Positions 4,558 to 19,305 of a DNA stretch of 41,488 nt are shown one piece after another. Origin of the DNA: a virus. Each line of letters opens with the position of its first letter. Position 1 is the stretch's first letter. The stretch lies in the UHGV virus genome UHGV-0206448; one strand, written 5' to 3'. Below the pieces are notes generated by a model. It was not told where the DNA came from. It ran no database searches and worked only from the letters and a program-made list of their open reading frames with translations. The translations under genes were made by a program, and so were the position numbers.

Positions 4558-6082
4558 TTTTGTAGACACGGGCGAGGTTGGGAGTGAAAACTCCCTGCCG
4601 AGTGAGGCTCTGCAGATTGATGGGGCATATATTGAAAATCTAATTGATGGATATCGGACTCTGTACGTGACCGGTCGTGAGCTTTTGGGATCGGAAATTT
4701 CGGAGAGAGAAATTGACCTTGTGGATGGGTCCGAGTATACGGGAAAGCGAGATACAACCAGAAGTATTACAGTTGGATACCAGTTGCTTTGCACATCCCC
4801 TAGAGAGTTTCAGGAAAAATTCAACAAACTCTCTGGAATCTTAAATAAGGAACAAGCAAAGCTGATTTTTGCAGATGAACCGGATAAATATTTTATCGGG
4901 ACGAAATCAAGTGTCGGAGATGTGGAGCCAGGCAGATTGAACGTAAAAAGCGAATTTACTTTTTATTGTTGTGATCCACGGAAATATTCTGCAGCGGAAA
5001 AATCGTTTACCGCTCATCAGGAAAGCGGATATCAGACGCTTACTATTGTAAACGGTGGTACAGAATCCGTTCCGGTAAGCTACGATATCACTCACAACCA
5101 TGAAAATGGATTTATCGGGATTGCCAGTAAATACGGTGCAATACAACTCGGCAAGACCGAAGAAGCAGACGGCGAAGACTATAAGGCGTCAGAGATACTG
5201 TCAGAGGGGTATAGCCTGTTTCAAGACGATCATGGTACCTCTTATCAGAATCCAGAAAACACCACACAGGGAGCGTTGGAAGTGCGGAATGTTGCTGGAT
5301 ACAATGTGATGGCGCTAAAAGGTGGACAAGCAACATCCGGATACTGGAATGGTGGAATGAAAACACTTACTATCCCGGTGGACAGTGAGGGCAGACGTGG
5401 AGCGAAGAACTTTTACTGTTACACGCAGCACTGGTTCGAGACAGGTTTGATGGGACAGACGGGAGCACAGACTATTGCGTTTCTTACAGGGGAAAATGAA
5501 GTGATCTGCTCTATGTCTATTAACAAGAGTGATACGGTTGGTAATACGGCGCATGTGGACTGGTTCGCGCCACAAAACAAGAAGATCAAGACACTGGATT
5601 TCCAGCCGACAGCTTATGAGGGAAACCCATTTAATTTAAAGATGGGTGGCGGGCATAATGATTTCTTAAAAGAGGGTGACCGGCTTCGGATTTTTTGGTA
5701 CGGTCAGTATTATTATTTTACTATCCCGGAGATTAAAGACATGGCGTGTGAGAAGATACAGGTCTGGATCGGGCAGTGGGGAAGTAGAGATCTTGGAAAT
5801 CAGCTGGTTACGCACAATTATTTAAAAAGTATCTGGTTCCGCAAGGATAACGTGGAAAAATACAGAGATGTGCCGAACCGGTATAAGTCCGGAGATGTGG
5901 TCTATATTGATGGAAATGATACAGCGGTTTATGTAAACGGGATGAAGCGGATGGAAGATGAAATCCGAGGAAGTAAGCATTTTCTGGTACCGCCGGGAGA
6001 GACGGAGATCCAGTTCTCCTACTCGGCATTTAGCAGTCCTCCACCAACGATTAAAGCCAAAATAAGGGAGGCGTATTTATAA
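4550..6082 (+). CDS. Distal tail protein (Dit), evolved/long form with a C-terminal extension.
   Basis: 510 aa immediately after the tape measure, with Dit-like N-terminal region. Start overlaps the tape measure stop. Confidence 0.75.
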   Translation: MYDFVDTGEVGSENSLPSEALQIDGAYIENLIDGYRTLYVTGRELLGSEISEREIDLVDGSEYTGKRDTTRSITVGYQLLCTSPREFQEKFNKLSGILNKEQAKLIFADEPDKYFIGTKSSVGDVEPGRLNVKSEFTFYCCDPRKYSAAEKSFTAHQESGYQTLTIVNGGTESVPVSYDITHNHENGFIGIASKYGAIQLGKTEEADGEDYKASEILSEGYSLFQDDHGTSYQNPENTTQGALEVRNVAGYNVMALKGGQATSGYWNGGMKTLTIPVDSEGRRGAKNFYCYTQHWFETGLMGQTGAQTIAFLTGENEVICSMSINKSDTVGNTAHVDWFAPQNKKIKTLDFQPTAYEGNPFNLKMGGGHNDFLKEGDRLRIFWYGQYYYFTIPEIKDMACEKIQVWIGQWGSRDLGNQLVTHNYLKSIWFRKDNVEKYRDVPNRYKSGDVVYIDGNDTAVYVNGMKRMEDEIRGSKHFLVPPGETEIQFSYSAFSSPPPTIKAKIREAYL

Positions 6083-9000
6083 TGAATGAAATCAGAATTG
6101 CCGTACTGAATCCACATGACAGGGTGCTTGCATTTTTGGATAACACCCATCGAAACTCTATGCATTATTGGAACGATGAGCTCCATGAATATCTGCAGGG
6201 GACAGCGAATACATACGCATTTACGGTAAGTTCCAAACACGAGGATGCGGCGTATATCGTGGAAGGGAATAAAGTAGCCTTTGTATATAACGGAAAAGAC
6301 TACTATCTGAATATCGTACATGTGGAAAAGGATGAATTTACAGTTACTGCGACAGCATGGTCTTTAAGCTTCGAATTGATCAACGAGAATGTTGGGGCAT
6401 ACAAATCTGAAAGCGCAATGAGCTTTGAGGAATATGTAACTGCCTTTGATCCGGAACGTACCGTGCGGATCGGGATCAATGAAGTGTCAGATAAGCGGAT
6501 TTCAAACGAATGGACAGGTGAGGCAACGGTACTGTCCCGTTTATTTTCCGTGGCGAATGTATTCGATGCGGAGATTGAGTTCCAGACTGTGTTAAATGAT
6601 GATTATTCACTGAAAGAAATTGTAATGAACGTGTATCGGGAACACTCAGACAATAACACGGGAGTTGGGGAGTTCCGGGGAGATATCAAACTGCGGTACG
6701 GGAAAAATGTTACCGGCATCCGGAAGGAATCCAGTATCGAAAACCTGTACACCGGTATCCGTCCAACAGGAAAGGATGGACTGACTATACAGGGAATTGA
6801 GAAAGAAGAGCTGGATGAGAACGGTGTAGTAGAGTTTTATACACAAGGTCCAGATATCCGGGCACCACAGGCAAGGGACAGATTTCCATCAAACCTGATA
6901 AACAAGGAAGACGGATACATCTTTATGCCAAAATCCTACGATACGGATAACAAAGACAAACTGTACAGTATGGCGCTGTCAGATCTTAAAACCGCATCTG
7001 AACCGGCTGTGACTTATGATGTGACGGGATACTTTGATACCGCTATCGGAGATACCGTGGAGATCGAAGATGAGGAGTACGTTCCTACCTTATACTTGAG
7101 TGCAAGAGTATCGGAGCAGGTTCGCAGTTTCACGAATCCGCAAGCAAACAAGACAGTCTTTACCAATTTTAAAGAGCTGCAGCCGGAAATCTCTGAAGAT
7201 TTGCTGCAGAAAGTAGAGGATCTGATTAACAAAACAAAAATTTACACCAGCAGTATTTCTACGGATAACGGAATTATCTTCAAGAATAACGAGGGAGTTA
7301 CGAATCTGACCGCAAATGTGATGGATAATGGAATCGACCGGACAGAGAGCTTTACCATTCGTTGGTTTAAGGGTGGAAATCATATTTATGACGGCCGGAC
7401 CATAAAAGTTCAAGCTTTGGATGTGGAGAGCAAGGCGGTCTACAAATTTGAAGCAAGGGATACAGAGGGAGTCCTAAGGGGATTTGAAGAAGTAACGGTT
7501 ACGGATGTATCCGATGGAAAAGACGGGGAACAGGGTCCGCAAGGTGAGAAAGGAGAGCAAGGCGAACAGGGGCCTCCGGGTCCACAAGGCGCTCCGGGAT
7601 TGGATGGTATACAGGGTCCAAAGGGGGATCAAGGAATCCCGGGAAAAGACGGAGTTGACGGAAAAACACAGTACACTCACATTGCTTATGCAAACAGTGC
7701 AGACGGGTCTAAAGATTTTTCTGTATCCGACAGCAATCGGGATTATGTCGGAATGTACGTTGATTTTACGCAAAATGACAGCACAGACCCGAAAAAATAC
7801 GTGTGGAGTAAGATCAAAGGTGCGGACGGAGCAAACGGAACACCCGGAAAGCCGGGAGCTGATGGAAAGACCCCATATCTACATATCGCCTATGCAAACA
7901 GCGCAGATGGAAAGACGGGATTTTCCACCACGGATGGTACAAATAAGCTCTATATCGGGCAGTATACAGATTATACACAGGCAGATAGTACAGATGCTGC
8001 GAAGTATACATGGACAAAGATCAAAGGCGAAAATGGAAAAGACGGAACAAACTCAAGAAGCTACATCCTGGAAGCGTCCGATACCGCTATTAAAAAAGGT
8101 GCAGACGGAGCTTTAACACCATCTAAAATAACATTCCGGTCGTTTTATCGAGATGGAGACAGTGCGACAAGGACACCATATAATGGTAGGTTTAAAATTG
8201 AAGAGTCAACCAACGGAACATCATACTCCGTGAAATACACCTCGTCTGCGAATGAAAGTGCAAAGGAGTATACACCGACTGCAACTGCGAAAATACTCCG
8301 TTGCACGCTTTACGGCGCAGGCGGGACTATAAATGCTTTGGATACACAGAGTGTTGTTGTGCTTACGGATGTGGATAATTTGGAAATCGGTGGAAGAAAT
8401 CTGTTACTTAAGAGTAAGAGAAAGGGGGTAAATGATTCATATAATAGACCCGCTGAGTACTTATGCGCCTCTTACGCTATCAGCGCAGCGCCATTGACTA
8501 TAGGAGAGACATATACTGTGCAAATCAATGCTACCACTACAGCCGAAAGAAATTTTATTGGTCTATGGATAGGTGGAGGAAGTTATTCACTATATATGTG
8601 GGGATCAAATGTAGTTACTGCAGGAACTAGAACTTATACTGGTACTTTTAAATTGAGCGATCACGCAGAAGGACAAAAAAATTTCGTCAATGTTTACTCT
8701 TCTACTACAGGTGGTGTTCAAGGATCAACTCCTATTTCAGGAACGTGTACAGTAAATTGGATCAAACTAGAAAAAGGTAACAAAGCTACCGACTGGTCTC
8801 CTGCTCCGGAAGATGTCGATGAGAAAATAGATGATATTCAAATTGGTGGTAGAAACATACTGAAAAATAGTAAAAACGGGATTGTTTGTACTGGCACAGA
8901 CCATTCATCAACAACTACTCCAGGTGCGACAATTACTACGAAAGCTACAGGTATAGGTAACGCTCATGGATGGATTGAAGGTTTTTATACAACCACGGTA

Positions 9001-11034
9001 ACGGAACTGTCGAAACGTGTAGGAACTGAATTTGCGTTCTCACTCGATGTTAAAATAACCGGTTCGTTTACCAATCTGCGTACGAAGGTTGATTTTAGGG
9101 ATACCAGTCATAATAGTAGTATTTTTAGTAACTTTATTGGCATTAATGGTTTAGAAGTAGGAAAATGGACAAGGGTTTCCGGTGTGGCTTCTGTTAAAGA
9201 GGTTGCAAACGTTACGGCAACTCGTTCGCTATTCTTATTTGATTGGAGTAATTCAACTGTCGGATCTACGATCGAATATCGAAATCTACAGCTAGAAGAA
9301 GGTAATAAATCAACAGCATGGACACCGGCTCCAGAGGACATAGAAACTTTAGTAGTAACATTGTCCAACGATTCCCAAACAGTAGCAACAGACACAAACG
9401 GAAACGGTGGAAACTTTGTAGATTGCTCTACAAAAGTGCAGGTTTACAACGGCACACAGGACGTTTCAAAAGTCGCTACTTACACCGTAACAAAATCTTC
9501 CGGAATTGCTGGTACATGGGATTTAAGTACACGTACTTACAAGGTATCCGCTCTATCTACGGATAACGGATGGGTTGACATTAAAGTAACATACAACGGA
9601 AATTCTATCACAAGACGGTTTACGGTTTCGAAATCGAAACAGGGCGCACAGGGAGCAACGGGACCTCAAGGTGATAATGGACCACAAGGGCCGGCGGGGA
9701 CATCGGGAAGAGGGATAAAAACCATTACAGAATATTATTTGATTTCTTCCGCAAAAACAGGAATTACAACAGCGTCAAGCGGTTGGAGTACATCAGTTCC
9801 GACGATGACAGCAACAAATAAATACTTGTGGAACTATGAAAAATTTACGTTTACAGATAATACCACAGCGACCACTACGCCAAAAATAATCGGGATATAC
9901 GGAGACAAAGGAACAACAGGAGCTACTGGTCCGCAAGGACCTCAAGGAAATGCAGGTGCAACAGGTCCCCAGGGGCCACAAGGAGCGACTGGAAACGGAA
10001 TAAAGTCTATCACGAATTATTATCTTGCAACGGCAAGCGGAAGTGGTGTGTCAGCGTCCACATCAGGATGGACTACAACTGTACAAGAAATAACAGTGTC
10101 AAAAAAATATCTGTGGAATTATGAAGTTGTTACCTATACAAATGGTAGCACGTATCAATCAGCACCATGTATCATCGGAGCATATGGTGATAAGGGAGCG
10201 ACCGGTGCTACAGGAGCAACAGGACCAAGTGGCATAATTGTATCTTCTACGGCTCCGTCAAATCCTAAAGTTGGCCAGTTATGGCAAACGGCATCCGGTC
10301 AGCCGATCAAGCGGTGGGATGGAAGTAGGTGGGTGATCCATTATATTTCTGTTGATAACTTAAACGCACAGACTTTAAGTGCGATAGCGGCAGATCTTGG
10401 AACTGTAACCGCTGGACTTATAAAGAGTCTGGACGGACACTTTTTTATCCAAGTAAATACCGGAGAGATCTACTCCGAGGATGAAAACGGGATAAACAGC
10501 TCTGCGATAAGCAAGGGCGTATTTGTAGCGAATGGGATGGACAGCGGCAGACACACAAGCTTGTCTATATTCCCAACGCAGATTGCGCAGTATTTTGACG
10601 GAGCCACCATTTCCAACCTTGTTATTTTTAAACGGGACGGTATATTTGTTAAAAGCTCCGGATCATACGAAATAAACATATCTAAAGCAACAAATTATGA
10701 CTCCGGAAAAATAAAAGGACCATTCGCCAGCACAAACTCATCCAACTATATACAGGCGGAGCTAAAAAGGAGAGGGTGCGTGGTTACATGTAAAATCACA
10801 GCGCTTATACAGTTCCCGAATACAGGATCGCACGGGCCGTTTGATGAATTAAGGATACCTATAGGATATCGACCAGTCGTAGACATAGTAGAGACGTACA
10901 GCGAATTGGTTGGTCCGTCAGTTATCGGGACTGGCAGATATTATATCTCAAAAGACGGAGGAATATCCATTGTAACTGGCAAGACAGACTACTGTGAGCG
11001 CATAAAGACATTTACATGGATTACGGAAGACTAA
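6082..11034 (+). CDS. Tail-associated lysin/fibre (Tal) receptor-binding protein. N-terminal prophage-tail endopeptidase-like domain, multiple collagen-like Gly-X-Y tracts and duplicated modules.
   Basis: 1650 aa. Gly-X-Y tracts include '[25 protein letters not shown]', '[19 protein letters not shown]' and '[25 protein letters not shown]'. Duplicated ~55-aa modules ('[10 protein letters not shown]...KIKG') and duplicated 'GIK(T/S)IT.YYL...KYLWNYE' modules. Start overlaps the Dit stop. Confidence 0.85.
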
Positions 11035-11107: not shown

Positions 11108-11413
11108 ATGACAGAAATATTGACAGAAACCTATAAACTTGCGTTGCCGATAGTACTCACAGCATTTATGGGATACATTGTGTGGCTACTCAAAAATCAG
11201 AAGAAGGACAGGGACGCAAATAGTGCAGGGACAATGCTACTTTTGCGCGTCCAACTTATCGAGTACCACGAAAAATGGACAAAAAGAGGGTATGTTACGA
11301 AGCATGGAATTGAGAATTTTATCGAAATGTATGATGCATACCATAAACTCGGCGGGAATGGAATGGCAACGCAACTATTAGCAGAAGTAAAAGAACTGCC
11401 AATAAAAGGATAA
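11108..11413 (+). CDS. Small membrane protein with one N-terminal TM helix. Lysis-cassette associated (holin-like or holin accessory).
   Basis: 101 aa with RBS GGAGGAAAG. TM segment 'LALPIVLTAFMGYIVWLL'. Sits directly upstream of the holin. Confidence 0.5.
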   Translation: MTEILTETYKLALPIVLTAFMGYIVWLLKNQKKDRDANSAGTMLLLRVQLIEYHEKWTKRGYVTKHGIENFIEMYDAYHKLGGNGMATQLLAEVKELPIKG

Positions 11414-11426
11414 AGGAGAATGCAGC

Positions 11427-11675
11427 ATGAAAAAAATTAACTGGATTGTAAGAATTAAAAACAAGGCATTCTGGGTTGCACTGATCCCGGCACTGTTGCT
11501 GTTGGTACAGGCTATCGCGGCAGTGTTTGGGCTTACCATCGACCTTGGAGACCTTGGGGATAAGCTGTTAACCGTAATCAATGCGCTCTTTGCAGTGCTG
11601 GCGATCCTCGGTGTAGTGGTAGACCCAACAACACCGGGCACAGGAGATTCAGAACGAGCGCTTACATATAAGTAA
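11427..11675 (+). CDS. Holin, phage phi LC3 family.
   Basis: 82 aa. N-terminus 'MKKINWIVRIKNKAFWVALIPALLLLVQ' is characteristic of LC3-type holins. Two TM segments. RBS AAAGGAG. Confidence 0.85.
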   Translation: MKKINWIVRIKNKAFWVALIPALLLLVQAIAAVFGLTIDLGDLGDKLLTVINALFAVLAILGVVVDPTTPGTGDSERALTYK

Positions 11676-11682
11676 ATAGCTA

Positions 11683-11711
11683 GAGGGCTTGTAAACAGGC
11701 TCTCTTTTATT
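11683..11711 (+). terminator. Terminator-like hairpin after the holin.
   Basis: AGAGG(GC)...(GG)CCTCT stem with a ~9-nt loop, followed by TTTTATT. Confidence 0.4.
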
Positions 11712-11744
11712 GTGTGACATCGTACAGGAAGGAGAAGAACGATT

Positions 11745-12254
11745 ATGAAATTTGAACAGGCATTAAAAGCAATGAAGAACGGAGAAAAAGTAAAACTGCC
11801 ATCTTGGGGTGGCTATTGGTATTGGGATTCGGACAAGGAAACGGTAATGATTCAATGTAGACCACAGGACAGTGATAATGGAGAATTACTTGATATCAGA
11901 GAAACACAGAGGGTTGAGTACACTCTTCTCAATGTGGCATCTGACGAATGGGAGATTGCAGACGAAAAGAATTGCCCGGTACTTGGTGGAATTGCAACAT
12001 TTTCATTTGGTGAAGCAATCAAATATATGAAACGTGGAATGAAAGTGAAACGTAAAGGCTGGAACGGAAAGAGTCAGTACATTCAGCTTGCTACCGGAAT
12101 CTCATATAAGGCTGCATCTGGGGAGGTTGTGAATTGTGAACATGAAGCCATTGGTAATATGGCAGTAGCTTTTGTCGGTACATCTGGTGTACAAATGGGA
12201 TGGCTCGCATCACAAGCTGATATGCTGGCAGATGATTGGGTATTTGTAGATTAA
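11745..12254 (+). CDS. DUF2829 / Tad2-like protein with a duplicated N-terminal repeat.
   Basis: 169 aa. Two copies of the 'F(E/G)xA(L/I)KxMKxGxKVK' motif. Hallmark 'KRKGWNGK' and C-terminal 'WLASQADMLADDWVFVD' match the DUF2829 consensus. Confidence 0.6.
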   Translation: MKFEQALKAMKNGEKVKLPSWGGYWYWDSDKETVMIQCRPQDSDNGELLDIRETQRVEYTLLNVASDEWEIADEKNCPVLGGIATFSFGEAIKYMKRGMKVKRKGWNGKSQYIQLATGISYKAASGEVVNCEHEAIGNMAVAFVGTSGVQMGWLASQADMLADDWVFVD

Positions 12255-12285
12255 TTGTGCGACATCGCACGGAGGAGGTGAGAAC

Positions 12286-12375
12286 ATGAGCGAACAGAAC
12301 GAATTTGGCAGAACAACAGCAGAGGAACTGGAAAAAGTATTTGAAGCAGAAGAGCAGGAGGAAGAGAAAGAATGA
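12286..12375 (+). CDS. 29-aa acidic micro-ORF, translationally coupled to the endolysin through an ATGA overlap.
   Basis: Strong RBS GGAGGAGGTGAGAAC before the ATG. Peptide 'MSEQNEFGRTTAEELEKVFEAEEQEEEKE'. Its stop overlaps the endolysin start. Confidence 0.3.
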   Translation: MSEQNEFGRTTAEELEKVFEAEEQEEEKE

Positions 12376-13175
12376 AAATTGGCTTAAGGGGAGGTCACTC
12401 CCCAAATTGTAAAGGTGCAATAGGTCTGATCGATGAACAGGCGGAAGTGCGGAAGATCTACAACGAACTTGTACCGATGCTACAGGCAGTCGGGCATACT
12501 GTGGTTGATTGTAATTCCAACGCATCCAATGTGTCCAGCGAGTTATCTGACGGAACAAATAAGGCGAATAGTGCCGGGTGCGATATTTACGTAACTTTGC
12601 ACATGAATGCGGCAGGAGCGGCGTCAGCTGGCGGTACAGAGGTGTGGTTATACGATGCATCTAACCAGACCATGAATACGATCGCAAGTAATATCTGCAA
12701 AAATTTTGCCGGAAAAGGATTTGCGAATCGTGGAGTTAAATACAGTTCCGGATACCACGATCTGAATGCATCGAACATGCCGGCTATGATCGTGGAGACG
12801 TTATTTTGCACCGGAACAGACGATGTGGCCAGATACCGGAGCTTAGGAGCGAGAGGGATTGCTGAGCTGATCGCAAAGGCAATCGACAGCAAAGCATCCG
12901 CAGGAAGTGGACATGGAAACAAACAGAATACAGAAGATCAGGAAGGAGAAGAGACTATGCAGTGTATGTTTACAGTAGAGGGAAAAGGATGTGTATATTG
13001 GTATCATGATGATAAGATTACGGCTTTGGGACATCCGGATGAGATGAAGATCCTGATGGATATTTACAAAGCGAACAATGGGAGAGATATGCCATCTTAT
13101 CATTGGACAAAGAAAGCGCCGTGGCACGCAAGATTACTTGCGGTGCTGAACAGAAAACCATCTACATCTATCTAA
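12372..13175 (+). CDS. Endolysin: N-acetylmuramoyl-L-alanine amidase (Amidase_3 catalytic domain) plus a C-terminal domain of unknown type, presumably cell-wall binding.
   Basis: 267 aa. Amidase_3 hallmarks: 'IGLRGGHSPN', 'TLHMNAAGA', 'EVWLYDASN', 'MIVETLFCTGTDD'. The C-terminal ~85 aa match no obvious SH3/LysM pattern. Confidence 0.9.
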   Translation: MKIGLRGGHSPNCKGAIGLIDEQAEVRKIYNELVPMLQAVGHTVVDCNSNASNVSSELSDGTNKANSAGCDIYVTLHMNAAGAASAGGTEVWLYDASNQTMNTIASNICKNFAGKGFANRGVKYSSGYHDLNASNMPAMIVETLFCTGTDDVARYRSLGARGIAELIAKAIDSKASAGSGHGNKQNTEDQEGEETMQCMFTVEGKGCVYWYHDDKITALGHPDEMKILMDIYKANNGRDMPSYHWTKKAPWHARLLAVLNRKPSTSI

Positions 13176-13614: not shown

Positions 13615-15147
13615 TTATTTCGGTACTTTCGGGTACACATCAATCATAAATTCAGAGTTTTTCTGGTTCTTTTTATTCCGTTTTGTTTTGGTCAGTACAA
13701 TCCGGTCGATCAGTTTCCTTAAAGAGCTGTTCTTTTCCGGGATAGTCAGGGAGTTCCATTCGCTTAACAAGTTCTTGCACTTCGGGACAAAATTCTTTCG
13801 ATTTGCCTGCCTCGCAATCGTAGTATGTAAATCTTCCTGGGCAGCAGTGATATTGTTCATGCAGTCTCTGATCCGCTGTTCCAGTGCATTGGATCGTTCA
13901 ATGAAAATCTCTTTCGTGTAAATTCCCTGCTCTAAAAAATCAAATAAGGATTCTCTCTGCTTCAAAAGCGTCTGATGTTCAGTCTCAAAATTTGTGACGA
14001 TCAATTCTTTTGCGGCAATGGCAGCAGTATCTTCCTCATGAGTGTCAGAAAATTCATACTTGGCTATGTAGTCTTTCAGCCATCCCAGAAGAGCTTCTTC
14101 CAGTTCATCAATCCGTATTCCGACCGTGGAACATTCGGTATACTGGCAGATCAGCACATCATAGGGCGTTTTCGTCTGCGCTTTCTTGCGGACCATAAGC
14201 CGGCCGCATTGCGAGCATCTGACCAGACCTGCAAATAAATTTTGGATCGGTCTGTCATTTCTGACCGGAGAGGAAAAACAGCCTTTTGGTTGATTTGCAC
14301 GTTTGAACAGGTCTGCGCTGATGCGTGGCTCCCATGCTGCATCTGCGAGAATATAATCCGTAGCATTCGGCCGGGACTTTACCACACGACCATCCTTTAC
14401 GGCTCTGACTGTCTTACGATATCCCCAACGGACTTTCCCAATGTTTGCCGGATTTGAGATGATACCCTTGAGGGTGGAGGGAGAGAACGGCTTTCCGCTC
14501 CTTGCAAGGATTCCCATATTGGACATATAGGTACAGGCTTTTTGGTATCCGTACTGCTTATTTCCACACAGATCATACATCAGATCGAGAACCGGAGCTT
14601 CTGTCTGGCTGGGAGTAAGAGAGTAGTGTTTTCCATCTGGTGCAATGATACGCTCCCATCCATAAGGAGCAACATTGCCAACGTAATAACCATCAGAACT
14701 GGAACGTTCCCTGCCGCGCTGCATCCGGCGTTTAATTGTTGCGTATTCCCGGCGGCTCATGAATAAGCTGAACTCAAAATATTCATTGTCATATTCATTA
14801 GCTGGGTCGTAGGTTTTATTCGGTGTTACAATCCGGGTGCCGGAATAGAAAAATGCACGCTGCACACGCCCCTGATCGATCGTATCACCTCTGGCCAGAC
14901 GATCTACGTCCATTACGAGGGCGCCATCCCACATACAGGCTTCTACCTCAGAGAGGACTTGCGTCATGACTGGTCGGGCATCGATACTGTCTCCGGACAC
15001 AACTTCCCGGTAAATCGCACCGATCGGAAGAGAAAGCGTTTTGGCCAACTCCAATAGAGTGGTAATGTGGCGTTCCAGGACATCGATACCGAGTGCTTCC
15101 AGTTCAGCGTCTTTTCTGGATTTTCTGGCATAGATAAAATAAGACAT
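13615..15147 (-). CDS. Large serine recombinase (phage integrase).
   Basis: 510 aa. N-terminal resolvase-type catalytic domain ('IYARKSRKD'). Recombinase domain, zinc-ribbon ('CSQCGRLM...C') and coiled-coil C-terminus typical of large serine recombinases. RBS AGGAGTG. Confidence 0.95.
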   Translation of the reverse strand: MSYFIYARKSRKDAELEALGIDVLERHITTLLELAKTLSLPIGAIYREVVSGDSIDARPVMTQVLSEVEACMWDGALVMDVDRLARGDTIDQGRVQRAFFYSGTRIVTPNKTYDPANEYDNEYFEFSLFMSRREYATIKRRMQRGRERSSSDGYYVGNVAPYGWERIIAPDGKHYSLTPSQTEAPVLDLMYDLCGNKQYGYQKACTYMSNMGILARSGKPFSPSTLKGIISNPANIGKVRWGYRKTVRAVKDGRVVKSRPNATDYILADAAWEPRISADLFKRANQPKGCFSSPVRNDRPIQNLFAGLVRCSQCGRLMVRKKAQTKTPYDVLICQYTECSTVGIRIDELEEALLGWLKDYIAKYEFSDTHEEDTAAIAAKELIVTNFETEHQTLLKQRESLFDFLEQGIYTKEIFIERSNALEQRIRDCMNNITAAQEDLHTTIARQANRKNFVPKCKNLLSEWNSLTIPEKNSSLRKLIDRIVLTKTKRNKKNQKNSEFMIDVYPKVPK

Positions 15148-15334
15148 TGTATCACACTCCTATATAATTGTATTTAAAAAAAGGTACAAAAATAACAGCC
15201 AACACAAGAACGAATGTTCTGGATTGTATAGCTGTTCCGAAGATGATACAATATTCTTGGTCAAAATATGTGCATATCTTCGGATGTGTAGACCGTCTCA
15301 GTGTTGGTAGCACTGGGGCGGTATTTTTTTACGC

Positions 15335-15562
15335 CTATGCTGCTTTGTTATAATCGACTACTGCAAACTCGGTCAGCATAGTTTTGAGTTTTTCCAGAAT
15401 AGTTTCAATTTTCTTCAGGGTAACACCATTCAGATATTCTTCGCCACATTGAGTACATTTTTTACAAGGAACATTCTTGATGATAATGTAACAATTGTTA
15501 TATTCTGTCATATAAGTCGTTGTAGATTCTTCTACATTACCTTTACATGTAAAACACATCAT
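15335..15562 (-). CDS. YgiT/MqsA-type zinc-finger protein. Putative antitoxin partner of the DUF4258 protein.
   Basis: 75 aa with 'CFTCKG...(x)...CKKCTQCGEEY'. C-x2-C ... C-x2-C-x2-C arrangement typical of YgiT-type zinc fingers. Overlaps the upstream DUF4258 gene by 4 nt. Confidence 0.65.
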   Translation of the reverse strand: MMCFTCKGNVEESTTTYMTEYNNCYIIIKNVPCKKCTQCGEEYLNGVTLKKIETILEKLKTMLTEFAVVDYNKAA

Positions 15563-15882
15563 GATTTTTTCTCCTTTCTTGTCTCAAGATCCGATTCCCA
15601 TTTTTCGGAATCAGGATAATATGCTGTTACGATCCAAAGTGTTTCCAAATTACTTCCAACTACTACGTGAAGGTATTGATTCTTGATCGAAAGACCAAGG
15701 ATCAGACAACTTGGGAACGGATAGTCATCTGGGTATTGCTCAATTATTTTTCCACTTTGAATACAACTTATGACATCGTCTAGTAAAATTCCACGTTGCT
15801 CCAAACGTTTTGCCGCATGGAGTGTTATCTCAATATTTTCTAAAGAACATATTTCTTTTATAGAATCTATGGTAAGTTCCAA
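15559..15882 (-). CDS. DUF4258-family protein (RelE-fold putative toxin).
   Basis: 107 aa with 'HAAKRLEQRGI...YPDDYPFPSCLILG...LHVVVG...WIVTAYYPDSEKW', matching the DUF4258 pattern. Confidence 0.65.
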   Translation of the reverse strand: MELTIDSIKEICSLENIEITLHAAKRLEQRGILLDDVISCIQSGKIIEQYPDDYPFPSCLILGLSIKNQYLHVVVGSNLETLWIVTAYYPDSEKWESDLETRKEKKS

Positions 15883-15900
15883 TAATGCACCTTCTTTCTT

Positions 15901-16446
15901 TTATTTCAATAAATCATCAATGCAGATCTCGAAATCCTCAAATATTTTTAATTTGAGAATATCGTGAAAAGGTACAATCACCGGCGCGACATCTTCCTCA
16001 TATCGGTATACCGTTGTGCGTTCTCTGGCAGGATCCACAATCCAATACTCCCGAACACCTGCGTCAGTATAGAGCGTATTTTTGGTAGAATAATCCATTT
16101 TACGGCTGCTCGGTGAAACGATTTCGATGATAAAGTCAGGTGCTCCTTCACAGCCACGGTGTGAAATTTTGTTAGAATTACAGACAATGCTAATATCAGG
16201 TTCTACATAGTTTGAATCATCGTCTTTAATGAAAACAGCAAATGGAGCAGGATAAACTTTACAATTACCGTGCTTTTTACTGATATAGTTTTGCAACTCA
16301 GTTGTAAATAAAGCAACTAATTCCTGATGCAATGGGGATGGCGGCGCCATGTTATAAATTTGTCCGTCAATCAGCTCCGCTCGTTGCCCATCTGGAAGAG
16401 CATAGATGTCATCGATTGTATGTGTAGTTGTTTTTAATAATGGCAT
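15901..16446 (-). CDS. Uma2-family (DUF820) restriction-endonuclease-like protein.
   Basis: 181 aa with 'APDFIIEIVSPSSRKMDYSTKNTLYTDAGVREYWIVDP', the Uma2 signature. Confidence 0.85.
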   Translation of the reverse strand: MPLLKTTTHTIDDIYALPDGQRAELIDGQIYNMAPPSPLHQELVALFTTELQNYISKKHGNCKVYPAPFAVFIKDDDSNYVEPDISIVCNSNKISHRGCEGAPDFIIEIVSPSSRKMDYSTKNTLYTDAGVREYWIVDPARERTTVYRYEEDVAPVIVPFHDILKLKIFEDFEICIDDLLK

Positions 16447-16578
16447 GATATCACATCCTTTCTTGATTTAATTTGAATTCTCCCAGTATTTTGTATTATG
16501 TATAATCGACGAAACAGTTACACCTATCATGTAATTGCCTGCTGTGGAGCAGGGGGAGAAAAATTTACAATTTGTCTA

Positions 16579-16607
16579 TTGATGTATACAATATATTTGA
16601 ATATAAT
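16579..16607 (+). promoter_or_regulatory. Near-consensus sigma-A promoter (TTGATG-17-TATAAT) driving the small membrane-protein ORF.
   Basis: -35 at 16579-16584, -10 at 16602-16607, then RBS AAGGAGGG before the ATG at 16630. Confidence 0.5.
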
Positions 16608-16629
16608 TAAGAAAAAAGGAGGGCTTGAT

Positions 16630-16884
16630 ATGAAAAAACATATTATTTATGTAGTAAATAGTTTAATTTTTATTTTATGTTTTCTTTTTATATTGAGCAG
16701 CTTTTTCAAAATTATATCACATACATGTATAGAAGCATATCTATCTGATTCTAATAGTCTAGTTATTGTTTGGATAGTTGGGATTGTTGTAGCAGTTATT
16801 TTTACTCATCCTCTGTATCAGGAGATTCTTGCATGGAGGCTTCCTCTGAAAGAGTGGCTGCAGCTTCATCATCTAAAGCAATAG
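16630..16884 (+). CDS. Small (84-aa) two-TM membrane protein on the opposite strand from the lysogeny cargo genes. Superinfection-exclusion-like candidate.
   Basis: Strong promoter and RBS. Two hydrophobic helices ('IIYVVNSLIFILCFLFILSSFF', 'LVIVWIVGIVVAVIF'). Its 3' end overlaps the convergent 387-aa gene by about 83 nt. Confidence 0.5.
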   Translation: MKKHIIYVVNSLIFILCFLFILSSFFKIISHTCIEAYLSDSNSLVIVWIVGIVVAVIFTHPLYQEILAWRLPLKEWLQLHHLKQ

Positions 16885-17965
16885 GCTCGACTTCAAGAGC
16901 AACACATCCTGATGCTAAAGCATCAACTGGTCCACGTAAGGCTTCTGGATTGATTCCAGAGGCTTTAATTTTATTGTACAATTCGAGTTTCTTTTCAAGT
17001 ACTTGCAATTCTTTTTCGTCTGCTTCGGCATGTTTTAATCTGTAATCATCTTTAGCTGATAAAATAGATTTTATAATTTCTATAATCCCTGGCAGTTTAA
17101 ATGAAAAAGCGCTACCGCCACCTAGTAATATTAAAATTCCGAGTATGACAGTCCAGTTATTTGTCAAGAATTCTTTGACTTGATCTAATAAAAATATAAT
17201 GTCTCCCGGAGAGTTTAGTGTTACTTGAGTCGATATATTCTTTTCAGGAACTATTGATGATAAAAATTCCGTTGCTCCATAGAGAAGGCTATTAATAGAA
17301 CGAGGACCAATAGGCGTTTGTTTTCGGACACTAAATACTACTGAAATATCATTTTCAAGCATGTAATAGTTGTACAAAGTATTTAATATTTGTTTGGCGT
17401 AGCTGTCTAAGCTTGAAATTCCGTGATAGTTTGAAATAGCTCTACATAAAGAATAGTTTAATTCTTCATTTTTTACAGTTCGAAGTAAAGTAATATGTCT
17501 TCTCTTTTTGTAAGGACATGACACATCGTTTATATCGACATCGTGGTTTTCGATTCGAAATATGATATTTTTTTCCAATTCTACAGTTTTGGTTTCGTCT
17601 TCAAAATAATCACCTGCAAGAGCAAAAGTAATATAGCTACTGCGTGCACTTGGAATAACTAGGATATCATCAGTATGTATTTCATTAATAAAAGAAATAC
17701 ATTTATTAATCACTGTAGAGGGACGTTGTATTTCATTGAACTCCATTAAGATATCATCTTTTAAAGAATCTCTGGAAGATTCGGAAAAGTCAGTGTTTTG
17801 AGTAATATTATTCCAAGCTAATGCAACAAAGCGCTTCGAAATAAACTCATTATAAAAATACCCTTTTTTTGTTCTTATCATCCAAAATCTTTTAGTGCGT
17901 GGAATAACAGGAACCGAAAAAGTATCAATCCAATTTAGCACTTCATTTTCTTCATGTAATTCCAT
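16802..17965 (-). CDS. Unknown 387-aa protein: N-terminal globular domain, single TM helix, C-terminal coiled coil and acidic tail. Last gene of the repressor-ImmA operon.
   Basis: RBS GGAGAAAAGAGGAGAAAAT. TM segment 'WTVILGILILLGGGSAFSF'. Coiled-coil 'KELQVLEKKLELYNKIK'. Tail '...SEEASMQESPDTEDE'. No family recognised by eye. Confidence 0.6.
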   Translation of the reverse strand: MELHEENEVLNWIDTFSVPVIPRTKRFWMIRTKKGYFYNEFISKRFVALAWNNITQNTDFSESSRDSLKDDILMEFNEIQRPSTVINKCISFINEIHTDDILVIPSARSSYITFALAGDYFEDETKTVELEKNIIFRIENHDVDINDVSCPYKKRRHITLLRTVKNEELNYSLCRAISNYHGISSLDSYAKQILNTLYNYYMLENDISVVFSVRKQTPIGPRSINSLLYGATEFLSSIVPEKNISTQVTLNSPGDIIFLLDQVKEFLTNNWTVILGILILLGGGSAFSFKLPGIIEIIKSILSAKDDYRLKHAEADEKELQVLEKKLELYNKIKASGINPEALRGPVDALASGCVALEVEPIALDDEAAATLSEEASMQESPDTEDE

Positions 17966-18029
17966 AATATTTTCTCCTCTTTTCTCCTGTACCTTAACAC
18001 CACTTTACTCTATATAAACGCCATAGCGG

Positions 18030-18515
18030 TTATATCATTTCCATGACCGCTAAATTAGGAATAAAATAGATAACATAATTATCTACAGCAATATACTCAC
18101 CGTATTTTCCTTTATAGCAGTCAATAGCTTCTTGCAGATATTCTTCAGTGACATGTAGATGTTCTGCAACCTCATATCTATTTTGGCATCCAGCATTAAA
18201 AGCTGATATGATGCCTCGCAATCCGATCATCCGGTTATACCCGTGCAATCTTCCTTTTTGTTCTTGCTTCATATTTTCAATATCTTGTAGATCAAAGATA
18301 TCACCGACAGCAGTATGGTGATGTCCGATTTCTTCAGCTAAGACGCAAGCCTTTTCTGCGGATGTTTTCAACCTATTGGATATCGCAATTCTATTTCTGT
18401 ATATTAAACCATCACTGCCGGAAAGAGCCTTTTCGCGGACAATCAGTCCGCTACTATTAGCCTCTTCCAAAAGTTCTTCATAAATCGTCATTGTATCACT
18501 CCCATTCAGAGTCAT
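18030..18515 (-). CDS. ImmA/IrrE-family metallopeptidase (repressor-cleaving protease). Non-canonical EExxH in place of HExxH.
   Basis: 161 aa with '...CVLAEEIGHHHTAVGD...'. Overlaps and follows the XRE repressor gene, the canonical ImmR/ImmA arrangement. Confidence 0.75.
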   Translation of the reverse strand: MTLNGSDTMTIYEELLEEANSSGLIVREKALSGSDGLIYRNRIAISNRLKTSAEKACVLAEEIGHHHTAVGDIFDLQDIENMKQEQKGRLHGYNRMIGLRGIISAFNAGCQNRYEVAEHLHVTEEYLQEAIDCYKGKYGEYIAVDNYVIYFIPNLAVMEMI

Positions 18516-18972
18516 CCATCATGATGTCTTTATCGTGTTTTCTCATTTCATCTGTTACTTTAATGTCGGTTCGTTCATGAGCCGCTAATACTTCTAGATG
18601 GTTACTTGACATAGAGTAACGATCAATCAGAGTTAATTCCTCTAAACGTTTGTAAGCTTCTTTTTTCCCGAAATCATTTAACAAGTTATACAACTCCAAT
18701 AAAGCCTTTTCTGATTTTGAAATATATTCGATTGTTCCATTTCCCGTAAATAAATTTACTGTAGCTTTGTTTTTATCCCATCCCATTATATAAGATGGAG
18801 AAACATTTCCCAAATCAGCAGCAGCTTCTATCTTGTCTGATGGTATATTGGTTATAATATTGTTTTCATATTTATACAATGTTTGCTTTGATACATTTAT
18901 TTTGTCAGCAAAATCAACTTGACTCATTCCGAGTTTCGTTCTAATTTCTTTAATTCTTTCTCCAACCGTCAC
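18496..18972 (-). CDS. XRE-family HTH repressor (CI-like/ImmR-like) with a C-terminal oligomerisation/sensor domain.
   Basis: HTH 'GERIKEIRTKLGMSQVDFADKINVSKQTLYKYENN'. Chosen start is the GTG at 18972 with RBS AAAGGAG. The longer track ORF to 19050 would run through the divergent promoter. Confidence 0.8.
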   Translation of the reverse strand: MTVGERIKEIRTKLGMSQVDFADKINVSKQTLYKYENNIITNIPSDKIEAAADLGNVSPSYIMGWDKNKATVNLFTGNGTIEYISKSEKALLELYNLLNDFGKKEAYKRLEELTLIDRYSMSSNHLEVLAAHERTDIKVTDEMRKHDKDIMMDDSEWE

Positions 18973-19043
18973 ATCAATTGCTCCTTTCTTATGAAGTAAC
19001 TTAATGATAACACAAAAATGTAATAAAATCAATAAAAAATATC

Positions 19044-19071
19044 TTGACAAGTTACAAATATGTGATATACT
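19044..19071 (+). promoter_or_regulatory. Early rightward promoter (TTGACA-16-TGaTATACT) in the genetic switch region.
   Basis: -35 TTGACA at 19044-19049. Extended -10 TGATATACT ending at 19071. Drives the Cro-like gene. Confidence 0.5.
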
Positions 19072-19104
19072 AGGGGTAACTTAAAAAGATACGGAGGTGA
19101 TACG

Positions 19105-19305
19105 GTGATAAAAACAAATGAGTTAAGAGGCGTAATTGCTAAGAATGGATATTCTCAGTCGGATGTGGCTGGAATGATTGGAATTACGCCAAAAACGTTT
19201 TATGAAAAAATGAAAAACGGAGTTTTTGGAAGTAATGAAATACAAATTATGATAGACAGACTTCATATCGAAGACCCGGTTTCAATTTTTTTTGCCAAAG
19301 AGTAA
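19105..19305 (+). CDS. Cro-like / DUF739-type HTH regulator.
   Basis: 66 aa with GTG start and RBS GGAGGTGA. 'GYSQSDVAGMIGITPKTFYEKM' HTH. Divergent from the repressor. Confidence 0.7.
   Translation: MIKTNELRGVIAKNGYSQSDVAGMIGITPKTFYEKMKNGVFGSNEIQIMIDRLHIEDPVSIFFAKE

Follow-up and report, generated by a model that had tools for sequence, protein, structure and literature searches.

The convergent gene pair

The virus genome UHGV-0206448, analysed here as a single window of 41,488 nt (the whole stretch), looks like a complete temperate siphovirus-like genome, with tail genes on the + strand up to ~11 kb, an accessory/endolysin region (11108–13175), a − strand lysogeny module (13615–19050) and, beyond it, + strand early, packaging, and head genes. 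Within the lysogeny module, a gene for a 387-aa DUF8426/PDC-S02-like protein (hereafter the large gene; 16802–17965, − strand), identified from the list of open reading frames (ORFs) and by homology, is met at its 3′ end by a convergent gene for an 84-aa two-helix membrane protein (the small gene; 16630–16884, + strand), recognised from its translation, gene calls, the ratio of nonsynonymous to synonymous substitution rates (dN/dS) and a structural model. The two coding regions overlap by exactly 83 nt (16802–16884), a length that a first-pass annotation of the sequence had put at about 83 nt, and the overlap encodes the acidic tail of the large protein on one strand and the basic tail of the small protein on the other. 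The pair is best explained as an accessory cassette of two genes that is complete in itself and is found on temperate phages and in defence islands.

The first-pass annotation had also assigned the pair to the cargo slot between repressor and integrase, with the large gene co-oriented behind XRE and ImmA and preceded by a strong ribosome-binding site, all of which is borne out, and each position that it gave proved correct. An XRE repressor (18496–19050, − strand; Pfam HTH_3, E = 1e-13) is followed by an ImmA/Peptidase_M78 gene (18030–18515, − strand; Pfam Peptidase_M78, E = 1.5e-4) and, after 64 nt on the same strand, by the large gene, whose Shine-Dalgarno sequence, AGAGGAG (17974–17980, − strand), was read from the sequence 8 nt before the ATG. 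The order XRE, ImmA, large gene recurs in loci L101–L105 of the comparison set, and we infer that the large gene is co-transcribed with the repressor-ImmA operon.

The small gene is nested in a listed ORF of 128 aa and possesses the expression signals previously ascribed to it, namely a promoter (16579–16607, + strand) with a −35 element TTGATG, a 17-nt spacer and a −10 element TATAAT, and a Shine-Dalgarno sequence, AAGGAGG (16616–16622, + strand), 7 nt before the ATG. Near-consensus as this promoter is, the consensus match alone is not significant because such sites occur at the chance rate in the AT-rich region (22 promoter-like hexamers found versus 20.4 expected from shuffled sequence). 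The stronger part of the claim is conservation: when eight relatives with large genes 55–100% identical were aligned, the conserved columns were the TTG of the −35 element, the TATAAT, the AAGGAGG and the ATG, with diverging flanks, which is a phylogenetic footprint. Most loci have a −35/−10 pair 50–75 nt upstream of the partner start (with a score of 12/12 in L077 and L082), and a strong Shine-Dalgarno sequence lies upstream of most partner ORFs.

The small-gene product has been called as a gene in public data (eight clusters, 69–100% identity) and, outside of the overlap, the gene has a dN/dS of 0.1–0.45 in divergent pairs. A tblastn search with the small protein of the window located it in 27 of the fetched loci, always convergent on the 3′ end of the large gene, and a profile of the small family searched against 5.8 billion proteins recovered 35 unnamed proteins of 51–137 aa, mostly of 67–92 aa. 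Judged from these comparisons, the small gene is real. Its AlphaFold2 model is a helical hairpin (helices at residues 2–32 and 41–83; pLDDT 80) and, because the N-terminus and the C-terminal tail are both basic, the topology is probably N-in/C-in. The 84-aa protein matched no family in Pfam, PHROGs, NCBIfam, or PADLOC, and 34 members of the partner family matched none in Pfam or PHROGs, including no holin or toxin family.

Just upstream of the small-gene −35 element there is a GC-rich hairpin (16533–16551; CCTGCTgtggAGCAGG), the place of which is taken in L101 and L102 by a different perfect palindrome (CCCCGACAtcggaTGTCGGGG). A role for the 16533–16551 hairpin as a terminator was rejected for either strand, the T-run being on the wrong side.

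Conservation of the gene pair

Loci fetched with the large protein were clustered at 90% large-protein identity, which yielded 39 non-redundant lineages 28–100% identical to the window. A convergent, homologous partner of 66–93 aa with two transmembrane (TM) segments is present at the 3′ end of the large gene in 27 of the 39 lineages, and nine further lineages have a co-directional two-TM partner of 60–78 aa that starts at or just after the large-gene stop, for a positional partner in 36 of the 39 loci overall. The partner HMM was built from these same sequences and its E-values are circular, but the positional evidence is independent of it. Under family-blind criteria (an ORF of 50–140 aa, at least two hydrophobic segments, and the correct position), an adjacent two-TM ORF was found at 34/39 loci compared to 7/160 control genes, the controls being genes of at least 200 aa from the same loci (Fisher p = 4e-26). 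Conservation of the pair across related prophages had been proposed as a check, and the pair is kept in related as well as distant prophages.

Close relatives retain XRE, M78, the 387-aa gene, a convergent 81-aa gene and the 83-nt overlap. Beyond the cassette these relatives differ, with either a serine recombinase directly adjacent or HicA/HicB, Uma2, and a tyrosine integrase, such that the pair stays together while the cargo (HicAB; DUF4258 plus an MqsA-like gene; Uma2) and the type of integrase change. At greater distance, in the Streptococcus agalactiae prophage phiGBSVK-D, a DUF8426-like gene and a convergent two-TM gene are flanked by a repressor and a 128-aa gene on one side and by an integrase on the other, the distant DUF8426 loci L094, L096, and L098 share the same layout, and distant DUF8426 genes outside of recognisable phages keep a convergent hydrophobic ORF of 67–81 aa.

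The 28 non-redundant downstream neighbours include 12 integrases, eight small terminase subunits, and two Bro-N genes, and the cassette occupies two classic moron positions. In one clade (L041–L048, L064–L067, and L093), the cassette has a sigma-70-region-4/ArpU-like late-regulator gene to one side and the small terminase gene to the other, with a co-directional two-TM partner. The existence of this co-directional clade implies that the gene pair has been inverted or rebuilt in the course of evolution.

Relatives of the large protein, or of its N-terminal part, also occur on other mobile elements. In streptococcal phage satellites, a DUF8426-like gene is situated between the integrase and a repressor-like gene; in one of these, Streptococcus satellite phage Javan462 (L100, 2438–3935), the convergent 65-aa ORF is highly charged and is not a membrane protein. 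Seventeen lactococcal plasmids encode a 211-aa protein matching only the N-terminal (PUA-like) part of DUF8426, and in plasmid pCIS7 of Lactococcus cremoris UC509.9 (L106, 3992–4627) the 211-aa gene adjoins a Y-family polymerase gene. The lead offered by these 17 plasmids was dropped, as the 211-aa protein consists of the N-terminal domain only and has no known abortive infection (Abi) annotation.

The convergent overlap and the embedded hairpin

The coding overlap measures 17–83 nt in 25 of the 27 convergent lineages and is an identical 83 nt in relatives with large genes 79–87% identical. Past the end of the overlap, 53 nt beyond the small-gene stop and inside the large gene, a terminator scan identified a 13-bp hairpin followed by a T-rich tract (16937–16977, + strand). 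The stem (16937–16967), which covers the large-gene codons for K-A-S-G-I-N-P-E-A-L and is followed by ATTTTATT, has a folding energy of −19.1 kcal/mol (z = −3.9), and a hairpin with a T-run is present at the homologous site in relatives. In an alignment of 11 hairpin sequences, 86% of cells are paired and eight of the 13 pairs have changed on both sides; the covariation score was reached by none of 500 shuffles, and sliding the partner columns reduced pairing to 34–59%. Many of the pairs are G-U in the + sense and would be A-C mismatches on the other strand; as these pairs fit only the + strand, the structure is taken to be selected in the small-gene transcript. The hairpin and T-run are thus a probable intrinsic terminator of the small gene.

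A terminator at this position, inside the large gene, leads to a predicted ~175 nt of complementarity between the two mRNAs (16802 to ~16977). The terminator scan found no large-gene terminator on the − strand ahead of the small gene, and lysogenic transcription may therefore read antisense through the whole small gene. A search of 15200–19200 against Rfam returned nothing relevant, with no family at E ≤ 1 save one chance match elsewhere. Covariation is also seen in the large protein, among the residues next to its G-I-N/D-P motif (A-S...E-A, D-S...E-S, S-A...A-D, and S-F...K-D, as compared at 16937–16967 of the window and the homologous sites of L003, L026, L030, L031, L077, and L078), and RNA structure appears to constrain the sequence of the large protein, with residue changes that preserve the hairpin of the opposite strand.

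The convergent overlap looks functional, given that the large gene contains the covarying, terminator-like hairpin that belongs to the small gene. The mutual antisense control that the first-pass annotation had suggested from the convergent arrangement must be dispensable, and cannot be obligatory, because nine of the 39 lineages encode the partner co-directionally. It can be speculated that the two proteins touch through their tails, acidic in the large one and basic in the small one.

Family and structure of the large protein

The large protein had initially been described as having no recognisable family, which no longer holds. Homologs 91%, 78%, and 72% identical to it (P0004, P0010, and P0019) carry the precomputed assignment PF28530.1 (DUF8426), phrog_10226 (unknown function) matches with E = 1e-56, and the PADLOC HMM for PDC-S02 aligns to aa 26–177 (profile positions 3–138 of 324, E = 7.5e-11). 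This last match covers the N-terminal half only and not the full length of the HMM; distant homologs match the PDC-S02 HMMs with E-values down to 1e-28, mostly over the first half and at most over positions 3–225 of 308. Scans of Pfam (in a set without the PF28530 model) and NCBIfam assigned the large protein to no family, and its placement in DUF8426, with a relationship to PDC-S02, is by close homology rather than by a direct HMM scan.

A word-indexed search recovered 289 homologs, nearly all of 380–400 aa, and an exhaustive search recovered 751 clusters (50% identity representatives) at E ≤ 0.001. Conservation is strong (mean column identity, 60%) and distant homologs keep the order of the motifs YW.VRT, GW(N/D), GD..IPS, CPYKKR, and QSPG, a hydrophobic stretch with GG, and a charged helical tail. 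Most of the bacterial genomes in which homologs occur belong to Lachnospiraceae or other Clostridia. The DUF8426/PDC-S02-like relatives as a whole are distributed over prophages (of gut Lachnospiraceae, other Clostridia, and Streptococcus), Streptococcus satellites, and defence islands. A search of BFVD returned one uncharacterised homolog only, and in one phage record (H17) the annotation of a homolog reads "putative restriction endonuclease domain protein".

An AlphaFold2 model built from a 56-sequence alignment is confident and compact (pLDDT 87; pTM 0.86). Its N-terminal domain (~aa 25–165; 17471–17893, − strand), which holds the conserved motifs FWMIRT, ALAWNN, DILVIPS, and CPYKKRR, has a PUA-like (YTH/EVE/ASCH-fold) beta-barrel, with YTH domains as the top Foldseek matches of the model (probability 0.96, E = 0.026). 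The PUA/EVE-like pattern suspected earlier from the sequence is accordingly recovered in the fold but not in sequence comparisons: there was no Pfam match to YTH, EVE, or ASCH, a profile search of PDB sequences gave chance matches and nothing relevant, and hhalign against the YTH domain of YTHDC1 gave a probability of 0.3%, which is no signal. The conserved residues W28, W51, N52, and Y120 are candidates for a modified-base pocket. A second, small alpha/beta domain (~aa 170–260; 17186–17458, − strand), delimited from the secondary structure of the model, ends in a conserved (N/Q)SPG and has weak, non-specific fold matches (ACT-like or S6-like); the possibility that this middle domain is a nuclease was rejected, being unsupported by every search.

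Conservation, hydropathy, and the model together define a short hydrophobic helix, a GGG(S) motif, and a second hydrophobic stretch (aa 266–298; 17072–17170, − strand). The hydrophobic run is ~11–12 residues long and is followed by GGG(S/K), in which G282, G283, and G284 are invariant; the 19-residue Kyte-Doolittle mean is 1.5–2.0 across the family, and the model has a helix at residues 271–281 followed by a loop of low confidence. The single TM helix proposed for this region therefore stands as a hydrophobic element of marginal hydropathy and is doubtful as a membrane anchor. With the basic residues located after rather than before the segment and a compact model, a single-pass anchor is less likely, and the region is more likely to act as a monotopic hairpin or as an element that binds the partner. 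The remainder of the protein is a helical, coiled-coil-like region with an acidic tail (aa 304–387; 16802–17055, − strand; model helices at 304–311, 317–335, and 340–356), and acidic C-terminal tails are kept across the family. No nuclease, NTPase, or other catalytic domain was detected in the large protein with Pfam, NCBIfam, PDB sequence, or fold searches, and this lack of an enzymatic domain points to a membrane effector.

Neighbouring genes

The 355-nt gap between the large gene and the next gene on the − strand, Uma2 (15901–16446), holds the + strand 84-aa gene. The Uma2-family putative endonuclease matches the PADLOC candidate PDC-S03 (E = 2.7e-45) and follows the cassette in the window, in a 17-locus cluster with large genes 73% identical to that of the window, and in L078, while in L104 and L105 it is located farther downstream, behind HicAB. 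It is followed by genes for a 107-aa DUF4258 protein (15559–15882, − strand) and a 75-aa MqsA/YokU-like zinc-ribbon protein (15335–15562, − strand), which share 4 nt and resemble a type II toxin-antitoxin (TA) pair (15335–15882), and by a large serine integrase (13615–15147, − strand). In L104 and L105, HicA/HicB replaces the DUF4258 and MqsA-like genes in the cargo region between cassette and integrase.

Outside of the lysogeny module, a 169-aa protein (11745–12254, + strand) has two Tad2-like stretches (PF11195, Thoeris anti-defence 2; E = 6.7e-26) and is encoded just upstream of the Amidase_3 endolysin gene (12372–13175); in relative L102, the early region contains a Tad2-like gene of 76 aa. 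The cargo of the phage seems to include anti-defence as well as candidate defence genes. Among the tail genes, a 1650-aa protein (6082–11034, + strand) combines a Prophage_tail endopeptidase-like region with collagen triple-helix repeats. The closest public phages are those of Ruminococcus (Mediterraneibacter) gnavus, which matched over short stretches amounting to 2–7% of the query.

Comparison with known systems

The PDC systems are 145 "guilt-by-embedding" candidates that were not tested by their own authors, and PDC-S02 is a single-gene candidate embedded in restriction-modification, BREX, or DISARM systems (10.1101/2024.01.29.577857). The PDC-S02 HMM matches the N-terminal half of the large protein and distant homologs share the overall architecture; however, PDC-S02 is described as a single gene within defence systems, whereas the gene considered here belongs to a prophage lysogeny module and has a conserved small membrane partner. 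The PDC-S02 match, and distant homologs that adjoin genes for Abi_2, AAA_15/AAA_21, and Dam methyltransferase, give the family a context that fits the role in defence supposed by the first-pass annotation.

Elsewhere, the PUA-like (YTH/EVE-type) fold reads modified bases in DNA or RNA. The large protein has no sequence similarity to readers with this fold (YTH, EVE/THYN1, ASCH, and the N-domains of McrB and VcaM4I), and its PUA-like domain is joined to a hydrophobic and helical C-terminus in place of a nuclease, GTPase, or eukaryotic RNA-processing module. In phage lambda, RexA and RexB are expressed in the lysogen from directly downstream of the repressor and consist of a cytoplasmic sensor and a small membrane protein; the system depends critically on the ratio of the Rex products, and a separate promoter serves the membrane component. 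The cassette may work in a manner analogous to RexAB, and the large gene shares the location downstream of the repressor in a lysogenic operon. Neither Pfam nor PADLOC detected homology to RexA or RexB, and the systems differ in the number of helices of the membrane partner (two here, not four), in gene orientation, which here is convergent with an overlap and not co-directional, and in the membrane effect, which here is a proposal.

Type I TA systems of Firmicutes prophages (txpA/RatA, bsrG/SR4, fst/RNAII) pair a small hydrophobic protein that has its own promoter with a transcript that overlaps convergently at the 3′ end. The cassette resembles these systems in its small hydrophobic protein with a dedicated promoter, its predicted 3′ transcript overlap, and its prophage location. 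It departs from them in having a conserved protein-coding mRNA as antisense partner, a larger membrane protein with the shape of a two-helix hairpin, and a co-directional arrangement in some lineages, and neither a type I antitoxin small RNA (Rfam, 15200–19200) nor a known toxin family (Pfam and PHROGs) was matched. The partners are also reminiscent of class II holins, with 60–90 aa, two helices, a basic N-terminus and C-terminal tail, and a predicted N-in/C-in topology; hydropathy and the AlphaFold2 hairpin agree with the class II pattern of two TM helices and a charged C-terminus in 60–100 aa. Unlike a holin gene, the small gene is not beside the endolysin gene, which is on the other strand than the lysogeny module, and none of the 34 family members belongs to a holin family.

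Interpretation of the cassette

We tentatively favour, at a probability of about 0.42, a Rex-like abortive-infection or exclusion cassette made up of a sensor and a membrane partner and balanced by convergent transcription. The large gene would be transcribed with the repressor-ImmA operon in the lysogen, and the PUA-like domain would sense a nucleic-acid feature of an infecting phage and relay the signal to the small membrane protein by way of the C-terminal part, with its hydrophobic and helical elements. The small protein might then permeabilise or depolarise the membrane or, alternatively, might hold the large protein back from doing so. The outcome would be abortive infection or exclusion, as with RexA/RexB, by membrane collapse or a block to entry. 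With a promoter of its own and a terminator embedded in the large gene, the small gene would yield an mRNA overlapping that of the large gene, and the balance between the two proteins would be fixed by convergent transcription together with antisense pairing. A more novel, and unlikely, reading is a new class of two-component immune module, in which a PUA-like reader of modified or foreign nucleic acid would be coupled to membrane disruption by a dedicated two-helix partner instead of a nuclease. In that reading the conserved convergent overlap ties the genes together, the terminator of one is part of the coding sequence of the other, whose flanking residues covary so that the hairpin is kept, and antisense pairing of mRNAs sets the ratio of sensor to effector.

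Several observations weigh against the Rex-like proposal. Three lineages (L085, L086, and L092) are without a clear partner, and no convincing partner was found for the homolog on the small Bacillus mycoides plasmid p9. The nine co-directional lineages are just upstream of terminase genes, where expression may be lytic. The PUA-like assignment is supported at the level of fold, with moderate confidence, and the hydrophobic element of the large protein is marginal as a TM helix in a model that is compact. Literature searches found no mention of DUF8426 or PF28530, no functional paper on PDC-S02, and no functional data on YTH in combination with anti-phage activity. An Abi or exclusion function is thus a reading of fold, context, and conservation, and the interpretation given in the first-pass annotation is supported in part. 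What the analysis demonstrates is the two genes and their linkage, the fold, the promoter footprint, and the covarying hairpin, whereas the pattern of expression, the ligand, the action on the membrane, and the activity against phages are proposals.

An alternative that we regard as unlikely is a type I-like addiction module that stabilises the prophage or island rather than sensing phages, in which the small membrane protein is a toxin and its mRNA is opposed by the large protein, by the convergent 3′ end of the large-gene transcript, or by the two together. The convergent 3′ overlap with a covarying embedded terminator resembles Firmicutes prophage systems such as txpA/RatA and bsrG/SR4, the hydrophobic product has its own strong promoter and Shine-Dalgarno sequence, and type II TA pairs (DUF4258 with an MqsA-like gene, or HicAB) fill neighbouring slots. 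A partner of 60–90 aa with two helices, however, exceeds typical type I toxins, the antisense partner is a strongly conserved 387-aa protein gene and not a small RNA, the co-directional lineages lack an antisense overlap, and Rfam gave no match. TA and Abi functions can coexist and are not mutually exclusive. A role in the life cycle of the phage itself, either as an accessory input to the ImmA-repressor switch that senses nucleic-acid state or as an accessory for membrane function or lysis timing, is quite improbable. It would account for a large gene directly after XRE-ImmA in many phages, for a clade with the pair between a late-regulator-like gene and the small terminase as if in a late operon, and for the holin-like two-helix topology of the partner, but the cassette is also found outside of phages, both with Abi_2 and AAA_15 genes as neighbours and on a small plasmid, its position shifts between the integrase and terminase sides in a manner typical of morons, the phage has its own endolysin region (~11.1–13.2 kb, Amidase_3), and the partner matches no holin family.

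Two further explanations treat the small gene as unrelated to the large one. That the large protein is a lone modification-dependent (type IV-like) restriction protein acting on DNA would agree with the PUA-like readers of McrB-N, VcaM4I, and similar enzymes, with the restriction endonuclease label in record H17, and with the treatment of PDC-S02 as a single-gene system by PADLOC, but it is very unlikely given the lack of a nuclease, NTPase, or catalytic domain in the searches above and a partner linked at 36/39 loci. That the 84-aa ORF is a chance hydrophobic ORF with a meaningless overlap is effectively excluded. AT-rich sequence does give many hydrophobic ORFs and promoter-like hexamers at the rate expected by chance; the enrichment over control genes (34/39 versus 7/160), the purifying selection (dN/dS 0.1–0.45), and the conserved Shine-Dalgarno, −35, and −10 columns refute this explanation, and the position is kept over large-gene identities of 28–100% and independent gene calls exist in public data.

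While the DUF8426 family and the PDC-S02 candidate were already catalogued, it is new here that the cassette comprises two genes, that the large protein has a PUA-like fold, and that the convergent arrangement is conserved and includes a covarying embedded terminator. The correct unit to clone is the two-gene cassette, including the small, unannotated membrane partner, and for databases the results suggest that PDC-S02 may be mis-specified as a single-gene system. Should the cassette prove defensive, PUA-like sensing would be connected to a membrane effector, a coupling that to our knowledge has not been described for type IV-like readers, and phage immunity would gain a clear example of protein genes coupled by antisense.

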